Source: a virus
UHGV virus genome: UHGV-1376088
Length of the DNA: 64,000 bases
Direction: 5' to 3' (one strand)
Part shown: positions 1-39,603 of the stretch, piece by piece
Layout: every line of letters starts with the position of its first letter
Position numbering within the stretch: the stretch's first letter is position 1
Program-made: the position numbers and the translations under genes
The notes under the pieces: generated by a model
Told to the model about the DNA's origin: nothing
Database searches by the model: none
What the model saw: the letters and a program-made list of their open reading frames with translations, nothing else

Positions 1-1966
1 CATTTGGCGTTATCGACAATGCAGGGATTATTTGAGGTTCACCAGATTCTTGTAGTTCACTGGTTAACTCTTTCATCCTTGGATTAATTAGGTCCGGCTT
101 GATTGCGTCCCCAAATGCCATTTGAAGTCCGCGACCTATCCAACCGCCCATAGATACATCCATCCCCCATACAGGGTAAGGCATATCACCTTGATGCATC
201 TCTTCAAGTCTATATGGATTTCTTAGGTAATCAAAAGGACTAAGAAACGGATTTAGATCCTCTTTTGTATCTTGGTCTCCATAAAGGATTTTATCCTTAT
301 TGCCGGCCATTAATCTTTGATACCAGTTCTTAGTGAAGTATTTTATTCCTTCACCTTCTATTGGTGTAGATGATGAGAACCATCCCCTGTTTTTACGAAT
401 AGAGACATCTTTGCCGTAGATATACTCTTCTCTAATCTCGTCGCTGCTTTCGCCTATCAGTGCACCAGGAAGAAATGGCAATGCTAGTAAGGCACCTATT
501 GCAGCACCTCTTGTTGCAAATCTTCTGGCCCTTGTACCAACTGCTAATGCGTCTTGAACTGGTGTATTTACAGCAAGTGTTGCTATATTGCGGCCGAATA
601 TAAAGCTTTCTCTTGCGGCCTCTCTTGTAGATTTAATATAACCATCATTGGCAATAGCTGCAGGAAGTGCACGTCTACCGTAAGCAAACGTACCTCCAGC
701 CATAGCGCCAGCTAAAGGGAAGCCAGCTAGTTTTAATAATGAAGTAGATCCAGGGGCTACGTATTCTTGTTCTTGCCTGTATTCTTCGAATCTGTCAGAT
801 ATAGTCTCTGCATATAGTAATTTTGCACCAAGGAATGTTGTTGCTAACCCTTCAGTTATACCCTGGCCAAATCCAGATCCATCTGTGCCTATCACTTTTG
901 AAGCATTGTCTAACGCATAAAATCCTGCTGCAAGAGCAGCCAATTTAGTTATACCATGCTTGGCATATCCTGTTGTTAATTCTTTTATTGTCGATTCGGA
1001 TGTTGCATTAGGATTGATTCGGCCATATTTGCCGATCATTTTAAATAATGTTGAGTCTTTATTTATTAATGTTCCGCCGGTTTCCTCTAGGAATCCAAGA
1101 GGTTCATTAACCATATTGAAGCCTTGGGCAACCGCCTGCCCTACAACAGACTTCATCCATTCCTTACCTATGCTAGCATTTTTATCTGCTGCTATGATTG
1201 TAAATGGATTATGTGCTGGAACATTTTTTGAAAGGTCTCCAACTTCTTTCTTTGCAAAGAATGAGGCACCTTCGCCGACAGCTATATGTCTACGCAGTAT
1301 TTTATTGTAATTAGATGTAACAGAGTGACCTGGCTCAGTTCCGGCAAATTCAGTTAATGTAAGTCTTGTGTTCTCAATAACCACATTGCCCGATGAGTCT
1401 AATAGCTTACCTTTTGAGTATTTAAGACCAGACTCAAAATCTGCATCTGTTAATTCACGCTCACCATACTTTGACGATAAAAATTTGAAATATCTTTTCT
1501 GGGCTTTCAGTAAATCTGATGAAAATTCAAATTCAGATTCTGCTGTTGCGAATGGCGTTAGGATATGTGAAGTGTTAAATGTTCTTAAAATAGAAAAAGG
1601 GGAAAGCTCCTCGAACGCCCTTGCCACGTTCATAGACAAGTTTGCTAAGGTAACTTTCCCCCCGCCGAATACGCTAAGAGCATCCTGCTTTGTTCCTCTA
1701 ATAGAGTCAGCAAGATAGCTAAGATTAACATAGCGTTCTGCTTTTCGTTGCACTTCTTTATTCTTTAATGCCTTATTCGCCAATACAATAGCTTCAAGTG
1801 TCAGTCCGTATTTCATGACCGAACCGATTATATCTTTGGCATCTTGCTCAGATTTATTTTCCTCAATTGTCTGAGCATCCATTAATATTCTACGATGAGC
1901 TAGACTTCCATCTCTTCTGTCTCTATAATCGTCTAGAGCAGACCATCCTATATTGGCTGTTATCAT
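1..1966 (-). CDS. partial CDS running off the left window edge (at least 655 codons); candidate tail tape-measure protein
   Basis: Hand translation of the reverse strand from the ATG at 1964-1966 (ATGA overlap with the stop of the 176-aa gene) gives an uninterrupted frame to position 1. Ala/Gly-rich hydrophobic segments (AGFPLAGAMAGGTFAYGRRALPAAIA, GAAIGALLALPFLPGALIG). Sits after sheath, tube and small genes as in P2-like tail modules. Not in the ORF track, presumably because it has no in-window stop. Confidence 0.5.
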   Translation of the reverse strand, partial: MITANIGWSALDDYRDRRDGSLAHRRILMDAQTIEENKSEQDAKDIIGSVMKYGLTLEAIVLANKALKNKEVQRKAERYVNLSYLADSIRGTKQDALSVFGGGKVTLANLSMNVARAFEELSPFSILRTFNTSHILTPFATAESEFEFSSDLLKAQKRYFKFLSSKYGERELTDADFESGLKYSKGKLLDSSGNVVIENTRLTLTEFAGTEPGHSVTSNYNKILRRHIAVGEGASFFAKKEVGDLSKNVPAHNPFTIIAADKNASIGKEWMKSVVGQAVAQGFNMVNEPLGFLEETGGTLINKDSTLFKMIGKYGRINPNATSESTIKELTTGYAKHGITKLAALAAGFYALDNASKVIGTDGSGFGQGITEGLATTFLGAKLLYAETISDRFEEYRQEQEYVAPGSTSLLKLAGFPLAGAMAGGTFAYGRRALPAAIANDGYIKSTREAARESFIFGRNIATLAVNTPVQDALAVGTRARRFATRGAAIGALLALPFLPGALIGESSDEIREEYIYGKDVSIRKNRGWFSSSTPIEGEGIKYFTKNWYQRLMAGNKDKILYGDQDTKEDLNPFLSPFDYLRNPYRLEEMHQGDMPYPVWGMDVSMGGWIGRGLQMAFGDAIKPDLINPRMKELTSELQESGEPQIIPALSITPN

Positions 1967-2493
1967 ACCGGAGGTCCTTCCCTTTCTTCTTCCTGTTTTA
2001 CAATAGGTGCCACTTCATTAGGGAATGCGACATGGCAGGCTGCATACATTTCAAATAGGTCGTTGATTGGAATATTTTTTACTTCTGTGTATTTTATTCC
2101 AAGAAACCTAGATATAACTGCAGCCATAGCCTCTACCATAGGAACAGACTCTACAGCCCTATCGTATGCCTTAAAGGGATCGTCGACGTATTCTTTTGAT
2201 TTTATAAATATAATTTTACCAACGGTAGATACAAATCCCGCTGAAGAACTATTGTAGTCGACCCCTTTTGGAATACCTGGCACATCTATAACGCAAGATT
2301 TAAATATCTCTTCGTATAGCTCATCTTCGTTTGCGCTATCCTCTATGTTGATACGCATAGCTCTATCTAGCTCAGTCATAGACATTAGTCTAGCCAAGAC
2401 AGATAGATTTTTAAACATTCGCCCCTCGATTTGAATAGGGGTGTTATTAAAGGGGATAACAATTGTCCCCGTCTTCAAATCCAATGCACTCAT
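1963..2493 (-). CDS. 176-aa hypothetical protein (tail-assembly region)
   Basis: ORF track; start codon overlaps the stop of the upstream gene (TAATG coupling) and its stop overlaps the tape-measure start (ATGA); located between tube genes and the tape-measure candidate. Confidence 0.55.
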   Translation of the reverse strand: MSALDLKTGTIVIPFNNTPIQIEGRMFKNLSVLARLMSMTELDRAMRINIEDSANEDELYEEIFKSCVIDVPGIPKGVDYNSSSAGFVSTVGKIIFIKSKEYVDDPFKAYDRAVESVPMVEAMAAVISRFLGIKYTEVKNIPINDLFEMYAACHVAFPNEVAPIVKQEEEREGPPV

Positions 2494-2978
2494 TATAGAA
2501 TCTTAATTTGTGAATATGCTTGTTGTAATGGAACAAATCCTGAGCGGTACATAATTTGCTCTTTTAGTGTAGAGATAAATCCTGCTGGAGCAGTAGTCAA
2601 AAATTCCTGCTTCGCTTCAGGATACAATAGGCAGCGGCGTACTACCGAGTCTTCTGCTCTAACCTCATTGTCCATCATTCCCTGTTTAATCATGTTGGAA
2701 TACTCTTGGCGTCTTAATACACGCCAAATGAATATATCCTTGCCACCCAATACTGATGATACATGAATCGTGCCGTACTTCTCTAGCCATGCTTCAATAT
2801 CATAGAGTTTAGGCGCATCCTCTTTATCTGAAAGAGCGTTAAGAAGAATATCGATATCAGTCTGTTCTTTTTGTTCTTCTTCGATATTTTCTTTGGCTTG
2901 CTCTAACTGCTCATGTTCATCTGGAGATAGATCATCTGGATTTAACGATTCTAGTCCTTCAATTTTTTCAACTCTCAT
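2493..2978 (-). CDS. 161-aa hypothetical protein with acidic N-terminus (possible tail assembly chaperone)
   Basis: ORF track; translational coupling with neighbours; acidic helical N-terminus; position between tube and tape-measure. Confidence 0.5.
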   Translation of the reverse strand: MRVEKIEGLESLNPDDLSPDEHEQLEQAKENIEEEQKEQTDIDILLNALSDKEDAPKLYDIEAWLEKYGTIHVSSVLGGKDIFIWRVLRRQEYSNMIKQGMMDNEVRAEDSVVRRCLLYPEAKQEFLTTAPAGFISTLKEQIMYRSGFVPLQQAYSQIKIL

Positions 2979-3925
2979 TCTGGAATTACCTCTTTAGCAA
3001 TAAATTTATATCCGTCAATTAACTGGCCATCTGAGCCGATATCTACTGAATGTTCATACCCAACTATTCTACATTCTACAATAGATATTCGTTGTTGAAC
3101 ACCCTCTGTAACAGCATCAGAATTATTATAAACCATATGAATAGTAAAGCTACCAAGGTCCGCCCAGTCTAATACAGACTTAGCCGATACCTGCTCGTTT
3201 TGATATTCTTTCAATTGCTTTCTATATTTGGCTAGCTCTTCGGATGTTAATTGGATTTGCTCATATGGGCTTAGGATTTTAAACTCATTGGTTCTGCCGC
3301 GATAATGCGCAATAACTCTAGCCAGATAATCTTTTTCTGCCTTATTGATTCTAATAATACCGTTTGTTAAGACATTGCCTCTGGCTAAAAAATCGTATCT
3401 ACTATTACCAATAGTGTAAATTGGTGTACTTGTTAGAGTCTCATTTACAGCGATTCCGGCCGCTCTGTCTATTAGAATATCGCCAATGTATATATTGAAA
3501 TCACTAGAAGAGAAATACTTTGTATACAGCCCATCGTATGATGCAGTTTGTACTTTCTTATGAGCCAATGCTCTTTCTGCGTCTGTTTCTCCCGGATTAG
3601 GATTATATGGCCTAGCCCTACCCTTTGAAGAGATAGCCGACATATTATCAACGGGGTCAACTTTGCTTGAACTCTTTGGGACGCCTTTTGGTTTAAAGTC
3701 CGTAGAATTACTTCTAGAGTCTTTAATTTGCGGATACATCTTTTCAATAACTGTTTTATCCACAGTGATCGATTTGCCCGGCGCAAGTCTTTTGGCAAGA
3801 GAATATTCTAGACCTATATTATATTCTCTAGACTGATTCTCTACGACATTACCGTCTACAGATACGACAATACCATTATCGGTATTCTCTATATTATATT
3901 TTGATTTAGCCATTATTTCTTCCAA
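2975..3925 (-). CDS. 316-aa hypothetical tail-module protein
   Basis: ORF track; 4-nt overlap coupling with flanking genes in the tail operon. Confidence 0.55.
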   Translation of the reverse strand: MEEIMAKSKYNIENTDNGIVVSVDGNVVENQSREYNIGLEYSLAKRLAPGKSITVDKTVIEKMYPQIKDSRSNSTDFKPKGVPKSSSKVDPVDNMSAISSKGRARPYNPNPGETDAERALAHKKVQTASYDGLYTKYFSSSDFNIYIGDILIDRAAGIAVNETLTSTPIYTIGNSRYDFLARGNVLTNGIIRINKAEKDYLARVIAHYRGRTNEFKILSPYEQIQLTSEELAKYRKQLKEYQNEQVSAKSVLDWADLGSFTIHMVYNNSDAVTEGVQQRISIVECRIVGYEHSVDIGSDGQLIDGYKFIAKEVIPE

Positions 3926-5313
3926 GTTTTTCTATGTGCCGCCGGGTCGACAATATTATCGCCTCCCCATAGCCCGCGCTTATTAGCCTTAGCATCATGA
4001 TATTTCTTCTTAATCCTATTAATATCTTCAGCTGACATGCCGGCTTGTCTTGCACCCTCTGGCTTAAACCACGCCAATCCTGCCTCTACTATTGCTTCAA
4101 CATATCTTGGATTGAAGAATAATTTACGACCGTAAACATCTGTACCTGTAATCTTTGTTACACCGTCATCAATGTCCTTATCCCATTTTCCATCGGCTAT
4201 ATATTTTTCGAGAAAGGCTTTTGCTTCATATCCATACTCTTGACCTTTATCTATATGGTCCCCTTTATCATGGTCAGTTTCCGGAGTATCAATGCCCATA
4301 AAACGCAAGTGAGTGTTGCCGTCTTCCTGCACTTGCTTAAACTTTGAGCCATCTATATTTCTGACATGCACATACACGGTATCGCCGTCATCCACAAAGA
4401 AGCCTGGAGCTGTTGATTTAAACGTCGCCTTATCGATATATTTATTATCATATTCAGAAGGCTTAGAACCGGATGTGCTGTCTGGGGCATCTGTTGCTCC
4501 CTGCTTACGATACTCTTCTCTTGCTGCATCTATATAGCTTTGAGGAACATTTGCTTCAGTTCCATTTCCTGCAAGCTGAGAGTAGGCATTGATTCGGTTA
4601 ATTTCATCTTGAGACCATGTGCCTTTTTTAACTGCATCGTTTACAGACTGATTCCATCTGTCGTAGTAATATGATGTGTCGCTATTATTATAATTTACAG
4701 CATCTCCTGATAATTGAGAGGCCTTTACACCATTGTATTTAGATTCGCCATATACAACGCTGCCAATTTTATTTCGCGTTTGTCTAGCATCTCTAGCAAC
4801 AAATGAAAGGGTATTTTCTGTGATAAGATCGTGGATTGAGTGAACTTGTCCAGAATTGATTAAGGTTGCCCCATAGATAACCTCTGAAACGGAGAACCCT
4901 CCATATTCTGAACTAAGAAGAATGATGATATCAAATGGCAAAATATCATCCGCCATTAGGTGATGATATGCCTTTTGTTTTTCGAGCTTTAATTGATAGA
5001 TAGAATCGACCGGTTCTTTAATTCCAATGCCGTCTGCGATGTCTTGCATGAATTGTCGAAGGTCGTCGTGTAGAAAGGATGTCTTAACGATAGATCCGGC
5101 TACATATCTTTTGCCTATGGCGAATCCGTCGATATTTGTATTGCCCAAGTTATAGACCGGGACTTTGTCTCTGAATATTTGATAAGACAGCGAAAGAAGA
5201 CTGCCCATGTAAAGATAGCCGTATCCAGGGAAGTTAAAAATAATGTGGGTGGCATCGCCACCCACAGAATGATATTCTTCCTTGTGTAATGGCTGATTTT
5301 TGTAATCTTGCAT
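3913..5313 (-). CDS. tail tube paralog fused to a C-terminal staphylococcal-nuclease (SNase/thermonuclease)-like domain
   Basis: The N-terminal ~200 aa align with the adjacent 234-aa tube protein (shared ILPFDI(I/V)L..S.E(Y/F)GG and ISY/SYQ blocks). The C-terminal ~160 aa carry the SNase hallmark LRFMGIDTPE...GQEYGYEAKAFL. Confidence 0.7.
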   Translation of the reverse strand: MQDYKNQPLHKEEYHSVGGDATHIIFNFPGYGYLYMGSLLSLSYQIFRDKVPVYNLGNTNIDGFAIGKRYVAGSIVKTSFLHDDLRQFMQDIADGIGIKEPVDSIYQLKLEKQKAYHHLMADDILPFDIIILLSSEYGGFSVSEVIYGATLINSGQVHSIHDLITENTLSFVARDARQTRNKIGSVVYGESKYNGVKASQLSGDAVNYNNSDTSYYYDRWNQSVNDAVKKGTWSQDEINRINAYSQLAGNGTEANVPQSYIDAAREEYRKQGATDAPDSTSGSKPSEYDNKYIDKATFKSTAPGFFVDDGDTVYVHVRNIDGSKFKQVQEDGNTHLRFMGIDTPETDHDKGDHIDKGQEYGYEAKAFLEKYIADGKWDKDIDDGVTKITGTDVYGRKLFFNPRYVEAIVEAGLAWFKPEGARQAGMSAEDINRIKKKYHDAKANKRGLWGGDNIVDPAAHRKTWKK

Positions 5314-5343: not shown

Positions 5344-6048
5344 TTAACGAGAGTTAAAGGTATCCATCGGCTCCCATGGAGATACAGAGCGGGCAATAAA
5401 TGAATATTGTTTCTCAGTAGTCAAGTCGTCGATAGAAATACCACCAGACTCGGATACAAACTCTACGCCGTAGATGGTCATCTTAGTAGAGCTACCAAAT
5501 TCGTTAGTAGAAGCCAATACGATATCGAATGGGAGAATTTGGTCAGCCAGACGAGCTTTTGTCAGATCGCGCAGACCTGAACGAATACCTTGAGAGGTAT
5601 TTAAGTCTAGTTTACCATATTCTGGATTCAATGTACCACCGCCACGGATGCCGTTGTTAGCTTTAGGATCGGTAGAACCATAAATAGCATTACGAGCAGC
5701 TTCTGGGATAGCATCTTGATATTGGCCATTGTTAATGTGTTTATACGTACCGCCACGACGATAGTTTGCGGTTTCATGTTTACCAAGCCACACGTCTGAA
5801 CGACCCATTTCGTCCATGATGTCAAACAGCGCTTCACGGTCAAATACTGTAAATACGCAAGAACCCATACATGTACGTTTACCACGCGCGATTGCACGAG
5901 CGTCTGGAGAGCCCATAGTGTGAATAGGCACTTTCTCACGGTCAAGACGATAAGAGATCATCTGCATGGTGCCGATTGGTTTACCAGCTAATACTGGTGT
6001 AATATCTACACCTGAAGTGGTGGCATTATATGTAACAAAATCTGACAT
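5344..6048 (-). CDS. tail tube protein
   Basis: 234 aa, immediately downstream of the sheath gene in transcription order; paralog of the N-domain of the next gene; size and position typical of a myovirus tube. Confidence 0.7.
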   Translation of the reverse strand: MSDFVTYNATTSGVDITPVLAGKPIGTMQMISYRLDREKVPIHTMGSPDARAIARGKRTCMGSCVFTVFDREALFDIMDEMGRSDVWLGKHETANYRRGGTYKHINNGQYQDAIPEAARNAIYGSTDPKANNGIRGGGTLNPEYGKLDLNTSQGIRSGLRDLTKARLADQILPFDIVLASTNEFGSSTKMTIYGVEFVSESGGISIDDLTTEKQYSFIARSVSPWEPMDTFNSR

Positions 6049-6067: not shown

Positions 6068-6087
6068 GGAGGGGATTAAACCCCTCC
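6068..6087 (-). other. GC-rich stem-loop between the sheath stop and the tube start (possible attenuator/processing hairpin)
   Basis: Perfect GGAGGGG-ATTAAA-CCCCTCC hairpin in the 45-nt sheath-tube spacer. On the transcribed (minus) strand it is followed by an A-rich tract, not a U-tract. Confidence 0.4.
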
Positions 6088-9644: not shown

Positions 9645-10284
9645 AACCTGTCTTGTAGAATTTTCCGTCCATCTCTAAATACTTGTCGGCAGCAACTGGC
9701 ATTATACTTCTATAGTTTGGATGGTGCCATTCGCGATTTGAAACGCGATTTGAGCAGTTCCATTTGCCTTTAACAAAACCATAAGCAAGTAACGTTGAGG
9801 CGTCATCTATTGCGGATAGAACATCATCTGCACATTCCTTAGATTCATTTGCAAATTTAAGAGCAGAACTTACATCGAATGTCGAATCCCTTTGAACTTC
9901 AAAATCTCCAAGAACCTTTTTAACAGATTGACCCTTAAGAAGTGTCCCATATAGTTTATTTGCAACACTAGATAAGGCTGAGCATATGACAAAGTCCCGC
10001 TTTATCATATACAGCTCTTCTTCTGAGAGATTGATTTTCTTTCTACGGATATAATTATCTATCCAGATTGACTTATTAAATATAATCTCCGAAATGTCTT
10101 TTGAGAATTTTTCTGTAAAAGAAACATTTTCGGCAGGGACATTTAATTCGATGTCTCGTATTGATGCGTAAAACGGACAAAGAGAAATCTCAGATGTAGA
10201 CTCTGCTACATCAACAGAGCCTCCATCTTTAAAATCAACTTTAAATCCGTATATTTTGATACGGTTATTCAATGATTTCCTCAC
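9601..10284 (-). CDS. 227-aa hypothetical structural protein
   Basis: ORF track; overlaps the neighbouring genes' ends. Confidence 0.45.
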   Translation of the reverse strand: MRKSLNNRIKIYGFKVDFKDGGSVDVAESTSEISLCPFYASIRDIELNVPAENVSFTEKFSKDISEIIFNKSIWIDNYIRRKKINLSEEELYMIKRDFVICSALSSVANKLYGTLLKGQSVKKVLGDFEVQRDSTFDVSSALKFANESKECADDVLSAIDDASTLLAYGFVKGKWNCSNRVSNREWHHPNYRSIMPVAADKYLEMDGKFYKTGYGHGNEQIPLYRRG

Positions 10285-13200
10285 CTATTCCAAGACTATC
10301 GCCTTTGTAATATTTGTATCTAATTCTATATGGCTTACCTATATCTTCATCGGAGAAGAATACAAGACCCGTATAGGGCTCTATTTTTACTTGTCCAGCC
10401 GAGATGTTTGCAGCGACTCCACCACGATTTGGCTTATCTGATTTTACGAAGAATTTAGGCTCAAGATCTAGGTAATTTGTATATACAACCTCTGCACTTC
10501 TGCCATCTATCTCGATATTTATCATATCTGGAGAACCGATAAAAGGCAACCCATAAAACACCGGATCGAATGTGCCAGACCGAGAAGCTTCATTTCCAAG
10601 TCTTGTGCATAATGCTCCTCTATATACATATTCAAATGTTGGCAATTTCATCTCTGGATCGACATTTATCTCATCGCCATTTAATGTGCCAGGAGTGGAA
10701 CTTGTAAAGCCAACCTTTATCGTACCGGATACCTTAGATGTTGTTACTGGCACTATAGTGACATAACTCATCTGATATGAACCAGAGGAATCAGATCCGG
10801 ATGTCCATATCACTTTATCGCCATCGTTTACAGTGACACCCATTTTTTCTGAATCAATAGTTATTGAGAAATTACTAGGATTCTGCAGCAATGTATTTGT
10901 AGGTAATAAAAAATCGTCTAAATAATTAGGCCTTTTCGTATTACAATGGTATGACACGCCTGACCCAATGTTGGATACAAATATATTTTTATAATTAAAA
11001 TATTCTCCAGAGCTTTGAGATGTTTTTATTGATATAAGGAATGTCCCCTTAAGTGTTGATAAGTCAAACTTCATTTTGGACGATCCTGGAAGTATATATT
11101 GTGGATAAGCATTATGGATATATCCTAAAAGGGTATGAGTCTTGTCTTTTGTTTTTAGTCTTCCGTCTCTTGTTAGGTACATATTTGTTTTTGTGCAAAT
11201 AGGGTGACGATATTTAGGTTTATTATTTTCCTCCGATACCGTACCAGACTGCTCAAATTCATTTGATACAGGCAAACAAGATTCCTCTATAGTAAATGAT
11301 GCAGTAGAAACATTGTCGTTAACGTAGGCATAAGTCCTGTGGAACACAAAGCAATCACCTGCAACGAAATTATCTCCTGATGCTAAGAATTGTACACCAT
11401 CTATTTCAAAATTACTTGATGATGTTTTAAATTTAGACTCTTTAACTTTTGTAAAAGACTGACTCTCGCTAGAATAATAATCAAATATATCTGGATTATC
11501 CTTGGATATACCTATATTTGGACCGGAAACTAATGTATAAGTTTTACTAAAACCGCTTCTTCTTACATCAAGAGACCATCTCCCATTGCTAATACTATTA
11601 GGATTCTCGCCTATGCCACTAACTATAGGATTACCATTACTGTCGATAATGGCATGCATAGTTTTAGAATATTCATTTGATGTTGAAGCACTCATATTAT
11701 ATCTATACTCATATCTTTTAATATCGCCATAAGCTATATTTATCGCTTCATATCCTACCATAACAGGACGTCCGTCAATAGCAATGCCCCATGCTGCACC
11801 TGGCTGAAGAGAATATTTCTCTGAGTTAACCATGTCCCTTATTGTTGTCTTCTCTGCCTCTGCCTTTTGTGGACCAATACATATCGGTATCAACGACACA
11901 CCATTGGATTTTTCACTACCAATTGGATATGATTGATAGTAATCTCTGTCTGAGCTATATGGCGTACCTGAACCCTTTTTCTCAGTCTTTAGTTCTATAA
12001 ATGGAATCTCTGAGTTGTAATAATGCGCTAACAGACATATACCAACACTATTACCGTCTCTAGATAACACAAATCCCATATTGCTATATTTTAATTTATT
12101 CTCATAATCAAATGCAGCATCGAATCCTGAACTTACACCCATTAGCTGTTTTTTAACAGTTGAGAATGGTTTAGTGTTCCATGTCTCACCCATGTTATCA
12201 GAATACATTATGCCGGAATCTGTTATAATTGCAACTCCGCCTTTGCCATTTCCAGAAATTGCATATACGCGTTCGATACCATCCTTTGTAACCCTCTTAA
12301 CAACAGGAGTCTCATCAGTATCGTTATCAAATTCTACCTTGTATAATCCGCTTTCACCACATCCGATCAATAGCCCCTTTTTGCTATCATTCCATGCGAT
12401 ACCAGTAATTTGTATACCTCTATTTTCATGTGGCAAGTTGGTCTCATCCAAGATTATATACCTTGAATTCCCTATAGATGTGAGTAGAACACCTTTTCTA
12501 ATAACGATAGCGATATTCTGTCCATACAGTGGCCATATTGCAGGAGAAGACTCATAATACATTCCATCCGGATGGTTATACTTTTTATACACCATACCAT
12601 TTATATTGCCAGGGTAGGATAGGTGCGGAATAGGTTCAAATGATTGAACATTGGAATTTCCATAATATCCAGAAACTATAGTTTTTCTAACCCTAAATTC
12701 AGAATCAGACAGCGATCCGCCTTTTAGTACATCAATCTCCCATCTTTCGGGAAGACCATATCTTTCCGTTGCGGATATTGCCTTTATAGACCCTGTACCC
12801 TTTTTAATGGATGATGCCTCAAAAAATGGTTTAATTGAGGAACTAATATTGACCCTTGTCTTTGAGAAGGTTGTACTAACACCTTTTCCATTGCTAATTT
12901 TTCTAATTGATTCTGGTGATATAGACCTTCTGCTGGCACCAACACAGCCTATGATACTTCCTGATTTTTTCATATCCTCATATGAAACATCGCTGATTAT
13001 AACTGGAGACATAATATTTTTATGACTATACCTATTTATAGTAGCATTCCTGTCGCTACCGGTAAATGCCCTCATAATAAGGCTGTTATATTGAGAACTT
13101 TTCATATTTGTGTCTAACAACCCAAATATTACTTTATCATCATCATCAATATCCCATGTTGTTGAGTCGATACCCATTCCACCTACGGAATCCTTATAAT

Positions 13201-13834
13201 TCAATGGATATGATATACTGCCTTCACCATGACCATCTCCGTTGTAGCTATACGACAGTACACCAGAAAGGTTTGTTATATACTCCCTTTCAGAGTCTCC
13301 TGATACTATAACCTTGTATGTTATATCCACTACTGTTGCAGAATCTTGCACTATAATCTCGTCCAAAGGTGTGTAGAACTCTGTTCCTTCAGTATTTATA
13401 TTTAAAGCTATTGTACCGATCTTCCTTACGCCAGAATCTGGGGCATATAGAACACCCTTGAAAACTATAACAGTTCTTCCACTAGAATCTTTATCATATC
13501 TTAAATTTTCTACACCAGTAACATCTGTTACAACCCTTGATGCCTGACCATCTTGGAATATGCACTTACCTCTTCTCCATCCCTCCTCGTCCCTATTGTC
13601 CATATAATAGTACGGTGTCTTTGGCATCCTATATGGCATAGTATATATAAAACTGATAGGATTACTACTGCTAGATTGTCTTATCATCAACGTATATGTT
13701 TCACCTATATACCCGGTATTAGAGAACATCATCTTTGCAGGGATTGTCTGGATATTTTTGCAGGATATCTCTTTCTTAATCCTGCCAGTTTCTTTGTCTT
13801 TTAATGTTATTGTAGGATAACCGTATGAGTTCAT
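10265..13834 (-). CDS. 1189-aa virion structural protein with a BNR/Asp-box motif (fibre/receptor-binding candidate)
   Basis: Long ORF; canonical Asp-box S-x-D-x-G-x-T-W (YSDNMGETWN); many Gly/Tyr-rich beta-type segments. Confidence 0.55.
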   Translation of the reverse strand: MNSYGYPTITLKDKETGRIKKEISCKNIQTIPAKMMFSNTGYIGETYTLMIRQSSSSNPISFIYTMPYRMPKTPYYYMDNRDEEGWRRGKCIFQDGQASRVVTDVTGVENLRYDKDSSGRTVIVFKGVLYAPDSGVRKIGTIALNINTEGTEFYTPLDEIIVQDSATVVDITYKVIVSGDSEREYITNLSGVLSYSYNGDGHGEGSISYPLNYKDSVGGMGIDSTTWDIDDDDKVIFGLLDTNMKSSQYNSLIMRAFTGSDRNATINRYSHKNIMSPVIISDVSYEDMKKSGSIIGCVGASRRSISPESIRKISNGKGVSTTFSKTRVNISSSIKPFFEASSIKKGTGSIKAISATERYGLPERWEIDVLKGGSLSDSEFRVRKTIVSGYYGNSNVQSFEPIPHLSYPGNINGMVYKKYNHPDGMYYESSPAIWPLYGQNIAIVIRKGVLLTSIGNSRYIILDETNLPHENRGIQITGIAWNDSKKGLLIGCGESGLYKVEFDNDTDETPVVKRVTKDGIERVYAISGNGKGGVAIITDSGIMYSDNMGETWNTKPFSTVKKQLMGVSSGFDAAFDYENKLKYSNMGFVLSRDGNSVGICLLAHYYNSEIPFIELKTEKKGSGTPYSSDRDYYQSYPIGSEKSNGVSLIPICIGPQKAEAEKTTIRDMVNSEKYSLQPGAAWGIAIDGRPVMVGYEAINIAYGDIKRYEYRYNMSASTSNEYSKTMHAIIDSNGNPIVSGIGENPNSISNGRWSLDVRRSGFSKTYTLVSGPNIGISKDNPDIFDYYSSESQSFTKVKESKFKTSSSNFEIDGVQFLASGDNFVAGDCFVFHRTYAYVNDNVSTASFTIEESCLPVSNEFEQSGTVSEENNKPKYRHPICTKTNMYLTRDGRLKTKDKTHTLLGYIHNAYPQYILPGSSKMKFDLSTLKGTFLISIKTSQSSGEYFNYKNIFVSNIGSGVSYHCNTKRPNYLDDFLLPTNTLLQNPSNFSITIDSEKMGVTVNDGDKVIWTSGSDSSGSYQMSYVTIVPVTTSKVSGTIKVGFTSSTPGTLNGDEINVDPEMKLPTFEYVYRGALCTRLGNEASRSGTFDPVFYGLPFIGSPDMINIEIDGRSAEVVYTNYLDLEPKFFVKSDKPNRGGVAANISAGQVKIEPYTGLVFFSDEDIGKPYRIRYKYYKGDSLGIGEEIIE

Positions 13835-15039
13835 TATTGTCCGCCGGATGTAATCGTTACTTTTACTGAAGAAGAATTTAGCGAGAGTGTACTTAACATA
13901 TCTTCAGAAATGAGTCTTTTCTGTTTAAAGTCATTAGACTTGATATTTGATACAGCTGATGACCAAGGAATAGCTATAGATGATAAACTGTCGTTATATT
14001 TATATGATGACTGTTTGGGGTCTGCTGATAATATTCGTGAATTAACAGAGCTCCCGCCCTTTAATGTAATTGATTCTACTATATCAATTGCGTTTGGGCC
14101 GCTGTATGGTGGAATCTGATCAGATATTAGTGCCCTATATTCTCCGCCAAAGATAGTTTTTATCTTTAACAATGGAGATTCTGAGTCTCCAAATACAGAT
14201 TCTACTATACCATTATTATATGTTGAATTGCCTGTTACTGATATTTCTGTTAAATCTGCCTTAAGATCGTCGCTTATCTGACCTCTAAATCTTCCGCCTG
14301 GAGATTTAAATAGGATTTCATTCTTAGGCTTTGCGCCGAAGTCTTCTCCGACTGTGGTATTTATAAGCCTATATTCTGCAGGTAGAATCTTTGAATATGA
14401 ACTATATGGATCATTAGAAACCAAACCTACTGATGTCTCCTTCTGAGACTCGGCCATGTCCTCAATAATAACTATTGCCTGACCGTTTTCTATTTTTATG
14501 TTGGTCTTCTCGACATAGACAAATACGTCTTTATCGTTAATTATTGATAACCCATTAGCTTTATCTGTGAAGTCAGTTTCAGGAATATTGAAGTAGAATT
14601 TATATTTATATTTAGGATCACCAGAGTCTTTTACTTGTTTTTCTATTAGCTCAAGAACAAATCTTTGTGGCAATATAGAAAGTCTTTTTGATAAAACCTT
14701 TTTTGTTTCCTCTAAAACAGTTTCCTCATTGTCGACTTCTTTTAGTCTTATTGGGGTGAATTCATCACCCATGAGCTGTTTATTTAAGTATTCGAATTCA
14801 GATAATTTTACACGGTTATATCTAAATTTTGTTTTACCAAATACGTTCTTAAATGGTATTCCTATTACTTGTATTTCACTGGATCCATGAACGTCTTCTA
14901 CCTGTATCGGCTTTTTCAATACAAGGCCGCCAGGAAGATATTCCATATTCCTATCAGCAAATCCTCGTGCCATCAACTCTGAGAAGTTTTCTACATCTGT
15001 CTTCTTCCAGTCTATTGGCATTAACTCTCTATCTGACAT
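13834..15039 (-). CDS. 401-aa hypothetical baseplate/tail protein
   Basis: ORF track; operon context. Confidence 0.5.
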   Translation of the reverse strand: MSDRELMPIDWKKTDVENFSELMARGFADRNMEYLPGGLVLKKPIQVEDVHGSSEIQVIGIPFKNVFGKTKFRYNRVKLSEFEYLNKQLMGDEFTPIRLKEVDNEETVLEETKKVLSKRLSILPQRFVLELIEKQVKDSGDPKYKYKFYFNIPETDFTDKANGLSIINDKDVFVYVEKTNIKIENGQAIVIIEDMAESQKETSVGLVSNDPYSSYSKILPAEYRLINTTVGEDFGAKPKNEILFKSPGGRFRGQISDDLKADLTEISVTGNSTYNNGIVESVFGDSESPLLKIKTIFGGEYRALISDQIPPYSGPNAIDIVESITLKGGSSVNSRILSADPKQSSYKYNDSLSSIAIPWSSAVSNIKSNDFKQKRLISEDMLSTLSLNSSSVKVTITSGGQ

Positions 15040-15064
15040 TATATATCCTTCTGGCGTACTTGTT

Positions 15065-15718
15065 TTACGGAGATTCGACTACTGGTTTATTGTTACTTTC
15101 ACCTTCACCAGCTTTATCTCCAAGATGTTCTGAACTGTTAAAGTTATCGGACTCTTTATATTGTCTAGCATATACTATAAATTCGTTATAGTATCTTCTT
15201 ACATTCTGTTCCCACCTTGTAAAGATTGCTGCGCGATTATCGGGTTTTATTGTAACTTTCCATTTTTTAACACCCTCTTGCCCAGCTACATCTTCAATAA
15301 ACTCTACGTTGTCAACTAAATTAAAGTATGCGGCTTTAATTCCTGCCTCTGTATTCTCTCTTACAATAAATGGTACGTCCGGCACTCCGACTGTCTCTGT
15401 TTGAGAGAATTCTAATAGTGCTAAGTCCACTCTTCCGTATGATAAAAGTATAGTTACGGGGCCGCCATCCCTATTCATAAGATGACAGCCATCTGTAACA
15501 ATTTCGGCTATTGTGTTGTATTTAAACGCATTTGTTTGAGATGGGTTAGTATAAACCTTTGTTACTGCACATGCATCCTTGATGTCTACATTATTATCCT
15601 TAAGCTCTTTTTCAAGTCTCGGATTAATAGATGCAAACAGATCAAGGACCCATCCATCTGTATTTAAAACCTTGCCACTTCTAAGTAACCATGGCTTTAA
15701 CTCAAGCTCTCTACTCAT
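15065..15718 (-). CDS. 217-aa hypothetical baseplate protein
   Basis: ORF track; operon context. Confidence 0.5.
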   Translation of the reverse strand: MSRELELKPWLLRSGKVLNTDGWVLDLFASINPRLEKELKDNNVDIKDACAVTKVYTNPSQTNAFKYNTIAEIVTDGCHLMNRDGGPVTILLSYGRVDLALLEFSQTETVGVPDVPFIVRENTEAGIKAAYFNLVDNVEFIEDVAGQEGVKKWKVTIKPDNRAAIFTRWEQNVRRYYNEFIVYARQYKESDNFNSSEHLGDKAGEGESNNKPVVESP

Positions 15719-16695
15719 CTTCTAAATCCTGGTAGGTATCTATCTCTTATGAAGTCAAGGTTTACAAATCTTCTTGCATCTTCAGAGTCTGTTGATAATG
15801 GCGTAGGTTTCACTGGAGTTGGCTTAGACGGAACAGTAGGGTTAAACTCTACACTAATAGTCGGAGGAGGCACTTCGACTTTAACCTCTGATTTACGAGA
15901 ATCATCCTTAAAGGAGTCGCCCGGGTTAAAGTTGTATGACTCTGTTTTAGCAAATTGATCTGGATATCGGATAACATTACCTGTATTGTCAGTTACCTTA
16001 CCAGCATCAATAAGCCACCATTCTATACCGCCAACATTAAATCCGTCCTGAATACCGACAATTGCGCCTATAGAGTTTAGGCTGTCTATTAAGCCTTCGA
16101 CCTCTATTCTAGAACATATGATAGTCGGATCATAATTTCCGCCTGTAACCTTATATTCTACATCTGTCTTGATTATAGTACATCCGTTAGATGAGTCTTT
16201 ATTCAATACAGCCTTATCTAGGCAGCAATTATTAGGCTCAGAGAATTTAACCTCAAAAGTGTCAGATTCTAGACCGCGAGGGATTTTACTTCCTAAGACG
16301 ATACTTTCCTCTTTGATGTCAATCTTCTTAGCTTCAAGGTTATAAAGAACGCCAGGGTCATAGACTTTTGAGTCAACCCACTTCTCCCCGCGAATAATCT
16401 GTGTAGTGTCCACTGGGAAACTATTATATCTATAAATAGAGATTGAAATAGGTGAAAGGGTTTTAAGATATGATGCGATTTGCGCTTCTGTTGCTTCTTC
16501 TGACGGAATAACGGAGGGGATATACAAAAATAAGCCATCTTTATCTTCGGCTATAAATGGTATATCCCCATATTTAACATACTCGGAAATTTCCTTTATT
16601 TCGCCTACTACTGCTTCCGGAGAGCCTCGGTCCCTAGTGTCGCCCGATTCACCTGTTAAACCAGTAGGTGTATTTTGTGGGTTTCTTGTTTCCAT
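15715..16695 (-). CDS. 326-aa hypothetical baseplate protein
   Basis: ORF track; 4-nt overlap with the upstream gene. Confidence 0.5.
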   Translation of the reverse strand: METRNPQNTPTGLTGESGDTRDRGSPEAVVGEIKEISEYVKYGDIPFIAEDKDGLFLYIPSVIPSEEATEAQIASYLKTLSPISISIYRYNSFPVDTTQIIRGEKWVDSKVYDPGVLYNLEAKKIDIKEESIVLGSKIPRGLESDTFEVKFSEPNNCCLDKAVLNKDSSNGCTIIKTDVEYKVTGGNYDPTIICSRIEVEGLIDSLNSIGAIVGIQDGFNVGGIEWWLIDAGKVTDNTGNVIRYPDQFAKTESYNFNPGDSFKDDSRKSEVKVEVPPPTISVEFNPTVPSKPTPVKPTPLSTDSEDARRFVNLDFIRDRYLPGFRR

Positions 16696-16713
16696 ATTAA
16701 CCTTAGTTGAAGT

Positions 16714-18063
16714 TTATTTGACACGTACATGCTTAACTGCCCAATAGCCTTTTTGACTTGGATTATCAGGATCTGTTTGAACTACCCATTCAACCTCTGA
16801 GTTTTTAGCATCAGAATATGTAGGTAAGAGGCGCTTCAAGTGCTCGGGGGTATCAGAGGCCTCAACCAACTTATTAATAGGCGCGATGGCATCATACCTG
16901 CCGAACTTATTAGGTTCATAGCCATATCTCAGCATCCGATCTTCTGAATAGAGATACCGTGAATCACTGAAGTCTGGGATAGAGTGTACAGGCTTCTCAA
17001 CAAAAGCATTCTGGTCTGTAACCCTAGATACAGGCGCTGATTTGTCATCTTTCATATATTTAATGAGCTTAGCCCGCTGTCTTTCTGCTTCTTCGGCGTA
17101 ATTTCCATCTGCCCTTGCTCCAACATATTTATCTCCCTGAATACCGAGGGCATATGCCCACATATTATATGCAGGGATGATATGGCCACCATAGGCAACT
17201 GTTCCATCGACAATAAGATTTGAATAGTCGTCTAGCCAATTTTTATCGACCCAGTCTCTCGGTTTTCGATAAATGCCAAGTGCAGTGTCCCACACCCTCC
17301 AGCCATATTCGCCCCAGTCTTTCTCATTGAGCTTTCCAGGGAGTCTATATTTTCCAGGTGTAACCCATTTGCCCTCCCACCAGTCATATACAGCATCTTC
17401 AGATGGTTTTTCTCCATTAGGACTACCAGACACAGTTGGAATAGTATGGGTTTTTGTTTCTTTAAGATGAAAAAATCCAGAACTCCATCCTTCAGAATCC
17501 TCACTCTTTTCTGTAAAGTACCCAACAAATCTAGGGTATTTAACCTTGTAGAAAGTTTCTTTTAATGGATACTCAACAGGAATATATCTCCAGTCTTCTA
17601 TGTAGGAGGTTCTTGCTCTTGTCCATTGCGGTAGAGCCCTGAAGTAGTCCGACTTATCCCCATGTGTTCTTTCATAGCCACCCACTATAAAACACCCATA
17701 TGTCTTATCCCAGCATACAATATCCCTGATTTTATTATACACTCTTTTTATGTATCTTTCCGATGGCTGTTTAAATGAGCCGACTTCAACCCATGTCTTA
17801 GTTATAGGATGATATACTAAATCTTTACCATTGCTTGATTTTTTAGCTATATAGCTTGGATAATCGTCATCATTGTCTGGCTCATACATAGTATAATCAA
17901 CTAGGCCTATGTCGCTCTCATCCCCAGATATCTCGTAGACCATATTGTGTCTATATGAACTATCGAAATTAAAAAAATTGAGCAGAGATTTGTTTTTTGT
18001 AAAAATCATATTGATATTCCAATTATAGTCTACAAGAATTATTATCGGTAATCTACCGCCCAA
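16714..18063 (-). CDS. 449-aa structural protein carrying a C-terminal ~65-aa module shared with the next gene
   Basis: C-terminal YGYEPNKFGRYDAIAPINKLVEASDTPEHLKRLLPTYSDAKNSEVEWVVQTD...YWAV aligns with two modules in the 636-aa protein. Confidence 0.55.
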   Translation of the reverse strand: MGGRLPIIILVDYNWNINMIFTKNKSLLNFFNFDSSYRHNMVYEISGDESDIGLVDYTMYEPDNDDDYPSYIAKKSSNGKDLVYHPITKTWVEVGSFKQPSERYIKRVYNKIRDIVCWDKTYGCFIVGGYERTHGDKSDYFRALPQWTRARTSYIEDWRYIPVEYPLKETFYKVKYPRFVGYFTEKSEDSEGWSSGFFHLKETKTHTIPTVSGSPNGEKPSEDAVYDWWEGKWVTPGKYRLPGKLNEKDWGEYGWRVWDTALGIYRKPRDWVDKNWLDDYSNLIVDGTVAYGGHIIPAYNMWAYALGIQGDKYVGARADGNYAEEAERQRAKLIKYMKDDKSAPVSRVTDQNAFVEKPVHSIPDFSDSRYLYSEDRMLRYGYEPNKFGRYDAIAPINKLVEASDTPEHLKRLLPTYSDAKNSEVEWVVQTDPDNPSQKGYWAVKHVRVK

Positions 18064-19952: not shown

Positions 19953-19961
19953 ATTGTAGCC

Positions 19962-21734: not shown

Positions 21735-21752
21735 TACCAGCCCCTTTTTATA

Positions 21753-22272
21753 TTATGCACTTGCGGTAAGTGTAAAGTCCATAAATTCTCTAACTTCACC
21801 AGCACCTGATACGTTTGTTGGTGTTCGTTTAAACCATACTGCCTGGTATTCGCCAGGTTGTAATGTTCCGATCAATAGCGGGTCATCTTTTGTATGGTCC
21901 TCAAATGTAATGCTTAATGGAGCAGAGTTCTCATCACGAATAATGTTTGCATCAGAGTTTGGCAATGGAGTTTTGCCTACTTGGAATTTTGCATATGAGT
22001 TTGAAGATAAGATAAGCTTCATACCCATAGCTGGGCCCTTTCTAGAGCCAAGAGGATTGTTATAGATATAAACACATCTGTAATCTGATGAACCGTTTTC
22101 ACTATCCATTTGTGTAATGTCATCCCATAGGTTATTTATAACCATACTGTTCTGACCAAGAATATATGAAACACCTTCATTTGCACTTTGTGCCATCTTG
22201 CCGCCGATAGATTTATTCGGCTCTGTTAAATTGGTTGATGTAGTGCTACCTGTTGATAGTCTAACTTCGATA

Positions 22273-22280
<8 letters not shown>
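21753..22280 (-). CDS. 175-aa hypothetical structural protein
   Basis: ORF track. Confidence 0.45.
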
Positions 22281-24859
<2,579 letters not shown>

Positions 24860-39091: not shown

Positions 39092-39603
39092 CCTATTTCC
39101 TTAAGTAATTTGCGGTAATCGCCATCTTTTTCGAATATCTCTTTTTCTGTGATAAATCTATATTTTGCATTGATCTTATTTTCTTTTAAAAATACAACTG
39201 CGGCTCTAGCTTTTAGTTGTACATTTATTGCCTTTTTGGCAGACGAAGGTTTTATTTCGCATAGTTCTAATCTTCCATCTGAGTATAAGACCAATGCGTC
39301 GGGGATGTAATTCCTTCTTAGCCCGGAATTGTCTGTATATGGTATCTTCATTGGCTCTACGATGTATTTTATAACACTGCTATCAGTGTCCATTCCTTTG
39401 TAGAATGCATACTCGTATAGGCTTCTATATTCGATATCCTTGCCAGCCTTAGTGGAGAAATACTTCCCTGAGCGATATCGCTTACCCTTATTGAAGTAAG
39501 CGCCATTATTTTTTATATGCTCTTCTTTTGTATGTCTGGACTTTTGTATACGTGGAGATTTATTGCGCTTAGGCTTACCACGAATCCTTTTTGAAGCTGT
39601 CAT
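39088..39603 (-). CDS. 171-aa PD-(D/E)XK-type nuclease-like protein with a basic N-terminus
   Basis: IPDALVLYSDGRLELCEIKP fits D...(D/E)xK; Lys/Arg-rich N-terminal 40 aa. Confidence 0.45.
   Translation of the reverse strand: MTASKRIRGKPKRNKSPRIQKSRHTKEEHIKNNGAYFNKGKRYRSGKYFSTKAGKDIEYRSLYEYAFYKGMDTDSSVIKYIVEPMKIPYTDNSGLRRNYIPDALVLYSDGRLELCEIKPSSAKKAINVQLKARAAVVFLKENKINAKYRFITEKEIFEKDGDYRKLLKEIG

Follow-up and report, generated by a model that had tools for sequence, protein, structure and literature searches.

A tail tube paralog fused to a staphylococcal nuclease-like domain in the structural operon of a large uncultivated phage

Introduction

Known tube initiators and spacers, including Mu gp43, T4 gp48/gp54, phiKZ gp88/gp182, and Pvc5/Afp5, share a tube-like domain by which tube growth is nucleated on the baseplate hub. 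In T4 and phiKZ, two tube-like rings, an initiator and a spacer, are located at the hub-tube junction (PMC13250141), and Mu gp43 combines the tube-like domain with a flexible loop and, at its C-terminus, a helix-rich/LysM domain that sits between hub and wedges (PMC11915804). As far as architecture alone is concerned, a tube fold with a C-terminal DNase is also encountered in the Hcp-ET1/3/4 proteins, which carry HNH-DNase, pyocin S3, and colicin-DNase domains (PMC6099711). [quoted passage not shown]

Here we describe tube2-SNase, the second of three tandem tube-like genes in an uncultivated phage of approximately 186 kb from a human metagenome, of which a stretch of 64,000 nucleotides (UHGV-1376088; hereafter, the window) was analysed. 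The initial annotation of this stretch had proposed that the gene directly following the tube gene encodes a tube paralog fused to an SNase-like domain.

Results

That proposal was confirmed: the open reading frame (ORF) of tube2-SNase begins 30 nt downstream of the 234-aa tube gene, encodes a genuine fusion in which a tube-fold paralog and an SNase domain form a single protein, and was also called on an ENA contig of 186,050 bp. Its domain plan consists of a tube-like domain, a flexible linker, and a C-terminal accessory domain (Table 1). The linker is weakly conserved, varies in length among homologs (alignment A1), and was modelled with a pLDDT of 33-60. A decayed PG_binding module was ruled out as its identity, because hhalign revealed no similarity between the linker and the extension found in the PG_binding clade described below.

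Table 1. Features of the tube2-SNase locus and their coordinates in the window.
Feature	Position	Strand	Basis or remark
Tail sheath, 751 aa	6094..8349	-	PHROG 16991, E=8e-64
tube1, 234-aa tail tube protein	5344..6048	-	Best match WH1 gp101, E=3e-40; tube-family profile E=1e-53
tube2-SNase gene	3913..5313	-	Uninterrupted ORF, 466-aa fusion protein; stop codon 3913-3915
Tail-tube-fold domain, aa 1-180	4774..5313	-	Paralogy to 234-aa tube gene, AF2 model and Foldseek
Terminator-like 10-bp perfect hairpin, TGTGGGTGGC-GAT-GCCACCCACA	5244..5266	-	Followed by T-rich tract; terminator scan
Variable linker, aa 181-295	4429..4773	-	S/N/Y/D-rich, low-confidence helices
SNase (thermonuclease) domain, aa 296-466	3916..4428	-	Pfam, PDB phmmer, Foldseek, residue census
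D311 (D21 equivalent)	codon 4381-4383	-	Ca2+ ligand
R337 (R35 equivalent)	codon 4303-4305	-	Catalytic
D342 (D40 equivalent)	codon 4288-4290	-	Ca2+ ligand
T343 (T41 equivalent)	SNase domain	-	Ca2+ ligand
E345 (E43 equivalent)	codon 4279-4281	-	Catalytic
Y394	SNase domain	-	Counted among Ca2+/catalytic residues
R396 (R87 equivalent)	codon 4126-4128	-	Catalytic
tube3, 312-aa protein	2975..3913	-	Homolog of WH1 gp099 and 0305phi8-36 gp142
Two tail assembly chaperone genes	1963..2978 (161 aa 2493-2978; 176 aa 1963-2493)	-	WH1 'tail chaperonin' gp098/gp097 homology
Tape measure gene, 5' part	1..1966	-	Open frame runs off window; 1256 aa on full contig

The N-terminal domain aligned with the 234-aa tube protein (tube1) in BLASTP over aa 120-174 (E=2e-10) and aa 18-92 (E=7e-9), and a profile of 107 tube-family proteins detected the tube2-SNase and tube1 ORFs with E-values of about 1e-59 and 1e-53. 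Two sequence blocks had been put forward as shared by these proteins; the ILPFDI block is indeed common to both, whereas the E(F/Y)GG block corresponds only approximately, with EYGG in tube2-SNase and EFGS in tube1. Modelled alone with the 107-sequence alignment, the domain reached a pLDDT of 73 and a pTM of 0.65 in AF2 (full-length modelling with a 24-sequence alignment gave a pLDDT below 50 over aa 1-213). This model had 49 Foldseek matches in the PDB at E<=1e-3 (best E=6e-7); the top 50 PDB matches listed were all tail tube, Hcp, or tube-like proteins, Pvc5 among them, without a separation in rank between initiator-type and trunk-type tube proteins. Another 262 matches at E<=1e-3, including 0305phi8-36 gp141, were found in BFVD, and single-sequence and profile searches of PDB sequences with the N-terminal domain gave no match. 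Judged by its model, this domain is a tube fold of the gp19/gpV-N/Hcp superfamily. The PHROG label 'major head protein' (phrog_9206) was disregarded; it probably derives from a RefSeq mislabel of 0305phi8-36 ORF141.

In the C-terminal part, Pfam SNase (PF00565) matched aa 336-449 (E=1.7e-10, 41.7 bits, gathering cut-off 21), and a precomputed PF00565 match exists for 67 of the 69 full-length homologs (P0001-P0069). The SNase domain starts upstream of the Pfam match, because the DGDT calcium-site motif is located at aa 309-312. The motifs RFMGIDTPE and GQEYGYEAKAF, on which the initial annotation was based, were found at aa 337-345 and 357-367, and the domain that it had placed at about 3950-4431 agrees with the interval determined here. 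The domain matched S. aureus nuclease chains in the PDB by phmmer (E about 1e-6), and its AF2 model, with a pLDDT of 80-95 over aa 290-460, had the S. aureus nuclease structure 4k8j as best Foldseek match (target-normalised TM 0.64, 24% identity, E=9e-6); eukaryotic SND1 SN domains were among the structural matches as well. S. aureus nuclease A and the tube2 domain, 24% identical in the structural alignment, thus have in common the fold, an OB barrel with three helices, as well as the Ca2+ ligands and the catalytic Arg/Glu/Arg set, but the former is a secreted stand-alone enzyme and the latter a fused C-terminal domain, in which the DGDT strand and R35 are separated by an insertion, the Y113/Y115 loop has been replaced, and position K84 varies.

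A residue census revealed the equivalents of D21, R35, D40, P42, E43, and R87 in 69 of 69 homologs, so that D311, R337, D342, E345, and R396, the calcium-site and catalytic positions on which the reading as a nuclease depends, are invariant; the Y85 equivalent was present in 68 and the W140 equivalent in 67. The T41 position is occupied by T in 25 homologs and by A in 44. In S. aureus nuclease, T41 binds Ca2+ via its backbone, and its side chain is therefore dispensable. The dN/dS of the SNase part was at most 0.17 wherever dS was measurable. The invariance of the Ca2+-site and catalytic residues together with this purifying selection implies that the domain is not dead, which argues against the earlier suggestion of a catalytically dead structural adaptation. 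On the evidence of these residues the active site is intact and predicted to be catalytically competent, and the conserved ligands suggest that the nuclease would be Ca2+ dependent. A phmmer search of 1.84 billion representatives with the SNase domain returned only 25 matches at E<=1e-3 and no informative new fusions; by sequence, the domain is a very isolated SNase subfamily.

All 69 full-length homologs (33-96% identity) have the tube domain, linker, and SNase domain in one ORF, on metagenomic phage contigs of 140-190 kb and one of 344 kb. Since all three parts are kept over this range of identities, the fusion is old. In relatives, the N-terminal domain is 89-100% identical to that of the window protein and the SNase part only 69-93%, and the tube domain has a dN/dS of 0.00-0.04, a constraint as tight as in the tube gene itself. 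Among 50,697 phage records, tblastn with the whole protein detected only two Bacillus phages, and with the SNase part only Staphylococcus thermonucleases. A scan of GTDB genomes yielded no relative, and therefore no clue to the host; a search for tRNAs found none.

A sister clade, represented by more than 120 clusters on contigs of 200-214 kb, carries a PG_binding_1 plus SH3-like module in place of the SNase, and this module was found on the next gene too. Among large myoviruses, it is common to find a second tube paralog whose C-terminal extension varies. The arrangement, which had been considered unusual, stands less alone than that description implied, given these extended paralogs and the SNase domain of the BtI1 hub (PMC2147016).

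The sister clades also bear on the notion that the SNase domain targets the DNA of the phage itself, or mainly binds nucleic acid, and would hold, process, or protect the leading end of the genome. There is a precedent in the tube initiator of Mu, which doubles as a DNA-end-binding circularization protein (Mu N/gp43; PMC11915804), and SNase domains are nucleic-acid-binding OB folds, of which the SND1 SN domains were recovered here as structural matches. However, the residues for hydrolysis and Ca2+ binding that are invariant in 69/69 homologs are not required for binding alone, and the replacement of the SNase in sister clades by peptidoglycan-binding modules or by nothing indicates that it is not a core part of DNA handling. 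We consider this explanation very unlikely.

The gene order sheath, tube1, tube2-SNase, tube3, chaperone, chaperone, tape measure was encountered in every locus read, and the same order is found in 0305phi8-36 and WH1, where gp141 and gp100, respectively, occupy the place of tube2-SNase. The N-terminal domain is homologous to gp141 (E=6e-21) and gp100 (E=2e-21), and all three proteins contain a 5-residue insertion that tube1-type proteins do not have. Beyond this domain they differ: gp141 has a C-terminal extension of about 325 aa without Pfam match and unrelated to SNase, and gp100 is a short ortholog without extension. Moreover, 0305phi8-36 and WH1 infect Bacillus, whereas the tube2-SNase clade is known from metagenomes alone. 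The neighbouring tube1 has the position of 0305phi8-36 gp140 (in GenBank, 'major structural protein; tail tube') and is probably the major tube subunit. The tube3 start codon shares one base with the tube2-SNase stop codon; its C-terminal ~185 aa constitute a third, divergent tube-fold paralog (alignment A4 versus tube-family alignment A3 in hhalign: probability 95.6%, E=1.3e-8), and its N-terminal ~125 aa are variable. This N-terminal extension was rejected as an immunity partner of the nuclease, because it is missing in the SNase-bearing relative L003. Beyond the tape measure, a 1666-aa gene and a 1964-aa gene (Peptidase_M23) are present, and the tube-fold genes detected over the window plus about 10 kb past the tape measure number exactly three.

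The surroundings of tube2-SNase are thus a phage structural operon in which the next gene downstream is another tube-fold paralog, and two alternatives can be weighed against this context. Firstly, the protein may not be part of the virion at all, but a nuclease that works in the cytoplasm or after release, to break down host DNA or to clear DNA upon lysis, with the tube-like domain as oligomerisation scaffold. Stand-alone SNase genes are known in phages (PMC2147016; Staphylococcus phage 'thermonuclease'), and the nr record of a homolog is titled only 'nuclease-like protein'. We nevertheless judge this highly improbable, in view of the tube-gene-like constraint on the N-terminal domain, the invariant position in the tail operon, and the orthologs gp141 and gp142, which are virion proteins verified by mass spectrometry. 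In GenBank, gp141 is described as 'identified as virion protein by mass spectrometry; tail tube paralog'; this annotation pertains to an ortholog that is 29% identical in the N-terminal domain only and has a different extension. The tube3 homolog gp142 also has a weak PG_binding_1 match. By analogy, tube2-SNase would be a structural and probably minor component of the virion.

Secondly, the tube2 ring may have a different address, at the head-proximal end (terminator or neck) or elsewhere on the tail, with the nuclease as an outward decoration. The tube fold also serves terminator and neck proteins of other phages, the gene adjoins the sheath and tube genes rather than hub genes, and the Foldseek matches do not tell initiator and trunk tube proteins apart. 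However, the usual terminator position is already filled by three neck-type virion genes, among them one for a 251-aa protein, which immediately precedes the sheath gene, and the cell-wall-binding modules of the sister clade fit better at the end that meets the wall, so that we regard another location as distinctly unlikely.

The terminator-like hairpin is located inside the 5' end of the gene, in codons 16-29 of tube2-SNase, and is kept at the nucleotide level in 8 divergent relatives: among 75 amino-acid columns that are invariant and degenerate, codon identity across the 8 genes was confined to 7, every one of which falls at residues 17-29. This conserved hairpin fits a lower expression of tube2-SNase relative to sheath and tube1. 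Promoter-like sites were not enriched over shuffles. Elsewhere in the window, a HOLDH RNA was observed at 41663-42027.

Discussion

The intact active site of the SNase fused to tube2 makes it probable that phages of this clade have a DNA- or RNA-cutting enzyme on their tails. We propose, at roughly even chances, that tube2-SNase is a low-copy, tube-initiator-like protein that forms a ring where the tube meets the baseplate and tethers a Ca2+-gated nuclease that acts outside the cytoplasm. As a minor structural protein of a contractile tail, its N-terminal domain would form a hexameric ring that is in register with the tube, by analogy most likely as one of a pair of adaptor rings that link the baseplate hub to the first major-tube ring, tube3 presumably being the other. 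Likeness to the known initiators and spacers is restricted to the fold, as there is no sequence similarity, and the site of tube2-SNase in the tail is assigned on that likeness; the accessory domain is LysM in Mu gp43 versus an enzyme here. The gene position stands against an initiator reading: initiator genes are beside the hub genes (after the tape measure in the Mu/P2 type), whereas tube2-SNase is between the tube gene and the chaperones, upstream of the tape measure.

Known tube proteins with C-terminal add-on domains have these outside the tube wall. A lumen-facing nuclease is therefore unlikely, also because it would be a danger to the phage's own DNA, and the ~115-residue linker may instead tether six Ca2+-dependent SNase copies outside the wall. 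The position of the extension looks like an envelope-facing accessory slot, as the sister clade has PG_binding_1/SH3 modules there, gp142 its weak PG_binding_1 match, and the BtI1 hub an SNase/transglycosylase swap. BtI1, which belongs to a 0305phi8-36-related lineage, resembles tube2-SNase in that an SNase is grafted onto a tail-tip structural protein in a slot that holds cell-wall-acting domains in relatives; by its published description, the carrier is a gp27-like hub, with the SNase at the other end of the protein.

SNase chemistry requires millimolar Ca2+, far above the cytoplasmic level. The nuclease would hence be silent in the cytoplasm during virion assembly and be switched on only extracellularly or within the cell envelope, and no immunity protein would be needed for an enzyme silenced in this way. 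Its substrate may be extracellular or envelope-associated nucleic acid at the site of infection, such as eDNA in biofilm or mucus that obstructs the way to the cell surface, and upon sheath contraction the nuclease could travel into the wall or periplasm together with the tube tip. No pertinent report of virion-associated DNases or eDNases, or of thermonuclease tail proteins, was recovered in literature searches.

The contraction step leads to the alternative that tube2-SNase is an injected effector like the T6SS Hcp-ETs, in which contraction drives the nuclease ring through the envelope, and DNA (the host chromosome, plasmids, competing phage DNA, or DNA acquired by competence) is cut in the target cell or periplasm. 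Hcp tube proteins that end in a DNase toxin (HNH, colicin-DNase, pyocin S3) form an established effector class (PMC6099711), the central baseplate rings of phiKZ and T4 pass the envelope with the tube (PMC13250141), and for the Mu initiator gp43, also a DNA circularization protein, a distal tail reaching the cytoplasm has been discussed (PMC11915804); strict conservation of the SNase active site is in agreement with such a function. However, the nucleases of the Hcp-ETs belong to a superfamily other than SNase, and these proteins are encoded in a T6SS cluster, have immunity genes, and act in the target cytoplasm, whereas tube2-SNase is encoded in a phage operon without an immunity-like companion gene, the next gene being a tube-fold paralog, and its enzyme type is Ca2+ dependent. 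The Ca2+ need of SNase-type enzymes far exceeds the cytoplasmic supply, and a non-specific nuclease at the tube exit would endanger the phage's own genome. Overall, injection appears unlikely, albeit worth serious consideration.

A more elaborate scenario, which we offer as a long shot, has six tethered Ca2+-switched nucleases on a tube-tip ring, hidden in the baseplate until contraction and then released in the envelope, where they would destroy non-phage DNA (the eDNA matrix, competence-imported DNA, or the genomes of competing phages), with the hairpin setting the dosage. If true, this would be the phage counterpart of the T6SS Hcp-DNase effectors.

To our knowledge, the enzymes known so far to be borne by tails mostly attack polysaccharides or peptidoglycan. 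With a conserved, catalytically intact nuclease on a tube-family protein, nucleic acid would join the barriers and targets that virions handle directly, and the SNase domain of the BtI1 tail hub (PMC2147016) would gain a rationale. The C-terminus of the second tube paralog in large myoviruses is a swappable slot, which holds nothing, an unknown domain, PG_binding/SH3, or SNase, depending on the lineage, and at which cargo might be engineered onto contractile tails. Finally, Ca2+ gating would be an answer to the problem of assembling a non-specific nuclease beside the phage's own genome without an inhibitor.

Tail operon and genomic setting

A contractile-tail operon occupies the minus strand over the window's first 8.4 kb; in it, the gene of tube2-SNase (tube-like N-domain, aa 1-180; SNase domain, aa 296-466) lies between the tube1 and tube3 genes. 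Genes for terminase, portal and major capsid protein are found elsewhere in the window, together with many genes without a family match. The window matched a 186,050-bp ENA metagenome scaffold, on which, as on one related scaffold, the long ORF open past the window start is a tape-measure-sized gene of 1256 aa, followed 3' by a 1666-aa gene and a 1964-aa gene with a Peptidase_M23 domain. In two related metagenomic loci the tape measure gene bears an intein (L003, an SNase-bearing relative, 11213-16069; L033, 7384-9398), with a faint LAGLIDADG match in one of them.

Features of the window.
Feature	Coordinates	Strand	Remark
Long ORF	1-1966	-	open past window start
176-aa protein	1963-2493	-	
161-aa protein	2493-2978	-	
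tube3, 312 aa	2975-3913	-	start overlaps tube2-SNase stop by one base
tube2-SNase, 466 aa	3913-5313	-	
tube1, 234 aa	5344-6048	-	
Palindromic hairpin	6068-6087		
Sheath, 751 aa	6094-8349	-	PHROG tail sheath, E=8e-64
Neck-region virion protein, 176 aa	9114-9644	-	
Block of large genes	10265-24853	-	
Intein-bearing gene	39600-40928	-	intein at aa 124-275 (Intein_splicing/Hint)
HOLDH RNA	41663-42027	-	Rfam RF02997
ORF	42273-43124	+	
T4-type lysozyme	43162-43659	-	PF00959, E=2e-37

The 45-nt gap between sheath and tube1 contains a GC-rich palindromic hairpin (GGAGGGGATTAAACCCCTCC), and the neck-region virion protein carries a CxC...CxxC cysteine cluster (CHCYNEISKEGMSDCPDCGG) that is possibly zinc-binding. 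Capsid and neck are separated by about 14.6 kb of large genes (1189, 401, 217, 326, 449, 636, 590, 175, 494 and 370 aa), which gave no Pfam match except one weak Ig-like; the 1189-aa protein, the only one scanned against PHROGs, had no match there. These genes may encode head or neck decoration, or fibres. The lysozyme is a single-domain protein without a cell-wall-binding domain, a weak hint at a Gram-negative host. The HOLDH RNA, a full-length match (all 391 model positions, 1-391; 376.7 bits, gathering score 319.4), occupies the gap separating the intein-bearing gene from the plus-strand ORF in this phage genome of ~186 kb; HOLDH is among the Weinberg-Breaker candidate structured RNAs, with function unknown (PMC8191799).

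Identity and catalytic state of the SNase domain

The C-terminal part of tube2-SNase matched Pfam SNase at 41.7 bits (curated threshold 21; E=1.7e-10) and PDB chains of S. aureus nuclease at E about 1e-6, and its AF2 model (pLDDT 80-95) superposes on S. aureus nuclease with a target-normalised TM of 0.64; by every feature testable here it belongs to the SNase family. The first calcium ligand is placed wrongly when HMMER aligns the domain to the PDB chains; MAFFT alignments locate the true DGDT motif before a short insertion, at aa 309-312. The initial annotation had left open whether the domain is an active nuclease or a catalytically dead structural adaptation, and had proposed examining its catalytic and calcium-site residues. 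To this end the C-domains of all 69 full-length homologs, drawn from 5.8 billion protein clusters, were aligned to S. aureus nuclease A. Residues equivalent to D21, R35, D40, P42, E43 and R87 were present in all 69, those equivalent to Y85 and W140 in 68 and 67, respectively, and the T41 position held T or A, a variation that is tolerated because the main chain of T41 supplies the Ca2+ ligand in S. aureus nuclease. Moreover, codon comparisons with ten relatives gave dN/dS values of at most 0.17 for the SNase part wherever dS was unsaturated. Residue conservation and low dN/dS thus argue that the domain is maintained as an enzyme, and the dead-domain option was set aside.

Three consecutive tube-fold proteins

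The N-terminal part is paralogous to tube1 (two blocks matched by BLASTP, E=2e-10 and 7e-9), which, together with the predicted folds, confirms the proposed fusion of a tube paralog to an SNase domain; as a small correction, the second of the shared blocks claimed initially reads EYGG in tube2-SNase and EFGS in tube1. From a 107-sequence alignment AF2 predicted the N-domain fold at pLDDT 73, and its best 50 Foldseek matches in the PDB were all tail tube, Hcp or tube-like proteins, including those of phage 812, HFTV1, PVC (Pvc1/Pvc5), phiCD508, AFP, Mu and lambda (gpV). By fold and context tube2-SNase is therefore a member of the tube-fold superfamily. The N-domain is under far stronger constraint than the SNase part (dN/dS 0.00-0.04), and relatives share 89-100% identity with the window protein in the former but only 69-93% in the latter, the pattern that a structural module which forms a lattice should show when it is joined to a peripheral module that evolves faster.

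A profile of tube3 and its positional homologs matched the tube-family profile over the C-terminal ~185 residues (hhalign probability 95.6%, E=1.3e-8); tube3 is thus a third, very divergent paralog, and the operon encodes three consecutive tube-fold proteins. No fourth was detected by HMM scans that covered the window in all six frames and a further 10 kb or so after the tape measure gene. The N-terminal extension of tube3 ranges from 0 to about 210 aa depending on lineage, and homologs of the protein in other lineages bear either PG_binding_1/SH3 (related locus L002) or, in gp142 of Bacillus phage 0305phi8-36, a large insertion.

Distribution and relatives

The fusion was found on metagenomic contigs of 140-190 kb and one of 344 kb, 24 IMG/VR contigs among them, with constant surrounding gene order in every case; no relative was detected among 185,579 GTDB species genomes. 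The same N-domain occurs in a sister clade (more than 120 protein clusters; contigs of 200-214 kb), where PG_binding_1 and an SH3-like module follow it; the next gene there has both modules as well. The operon recurs in Bacillus jumbo phage vB_BceM_WH1, where both tube paralogs (gp101 and gp100) are plain. A five-residue insertion is common to tube2-SNase, gp100 and the PG_binding clade and missing from tube1-type proteins, and marks them as orthologs of one old duplicate. Among the BFVD matches were further long tube-plus-extension proteins from uncultured phages, and phage G has tandem tube paralogs.

In Bacillus phage 0305phi8-36, gp140 is annotated as 'major structural protein; tail tube' and gp141 (502 aa) as 'tail tube paralog'; gp141 aligns to the N-domain of tube2-SNase (E=6e-21), whereas its extension of about 325 aa is unrelated, and gp142 (558 aa) aligns to tube3. 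All three are annotated virion proteins by mass spectrometry, and that tube2-SNase is a non-virion enzyme is regarded as very improbable.

A conserved hairpin within the tube2-SNase gene

A terminator scan detected a perfect 10-bp hairpin, TGTGGGTGGC-GAT-GCCACCCACA, then TTATTTTTAA, at 5266-5244 on the coding (minus) strand, within codons 16-29 and with a T tract reaching to about 5234. Relatives with protein identity as low as 33-41% retain this stem sequence over 8-9 bp, with a T-rich tract after it, and the hairpin is absent from the non-SNase orthologs compared. Across eight divergent genes aligned by codon, only 7 of the 75 columns with an invariant amino acid and synonymous choices had an identical codon throughout; all 7 cluster at residues 17-29, which indicates selection at the nucleotide level. 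Hypothetically, the hairpin could be a partial intrinsic terminator or attenuator; its place right behind the sheath and tube genes, whose products are needed in abundance, would suit a product of low copy number.

Proposed tail position and role

In solved myophage tails one or two tube-like rings separate tube from hub, the initiator and spacer of T4 and phiKZ being rings of this kind that join the two (PMC13250141). Mu initiator gp43 combines a tube-like domain with a flexible loop and a LysM-containing C-terminal domain that is lodged between hub and wedges (PMC11915804); tube2-SNase is laid out alike, SNase being the distal module, where the sister clade has peptidoglycan-binding modules. 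A related element, the B. thuringiensis israelensis prophage-like BtI1, bears an SNase domain on the hub itself where 0305phi8-36 has a transglycosylase (PMC2147016). Together, the initiator layouts, the sister-clade modules and the BtI1 hub point to the cell-proximal tube end. Tube2-SNase shares the layout of initiators but departs from two of their usual features, LysM and gene position, and, its tail location being inferred, is not filed as one. Type VI Hcp-ET effectors are alike in architecture only, and delivery of tube2-SNase into the cell as such an effector seems unlikely.

Where known tube proteins carry an added C-terminal domain, as do lambda gpV, T5 pb6 and SPP1 gp17.1*, that domain lies outside the tube wall. 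Under a sheath, room for such a domain would exist only at the baseplate or neck; placement at the neck or another location is somewhat less probable still than effector delivery. SNase enzymes need Ca2+ at levels found outside the cytoplasm; the nuclease would therefore be inactive while virions assemble and active in the environment or envelope, which would also account for the lack of an immunity gene. Action on the phage's own DNA ends is considered improbable.

Extensions on second tube paralogs had been noted in 2007, as had an SNase on a tail hub. Apparently new, against the literature searched, are the specific tube-paralog-SNase fusion, the strict conservation of its catalytic residues and how widely it has spread in a large metagenomic clade. 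The reading favoured here, to which we give about an even chance, is that tube2-SNase would form a low-copy ring at the baseplate end of the tube, tethering a Ca2+-gated nuclease that would act on extracellular or envelope-associated nucleic acid.
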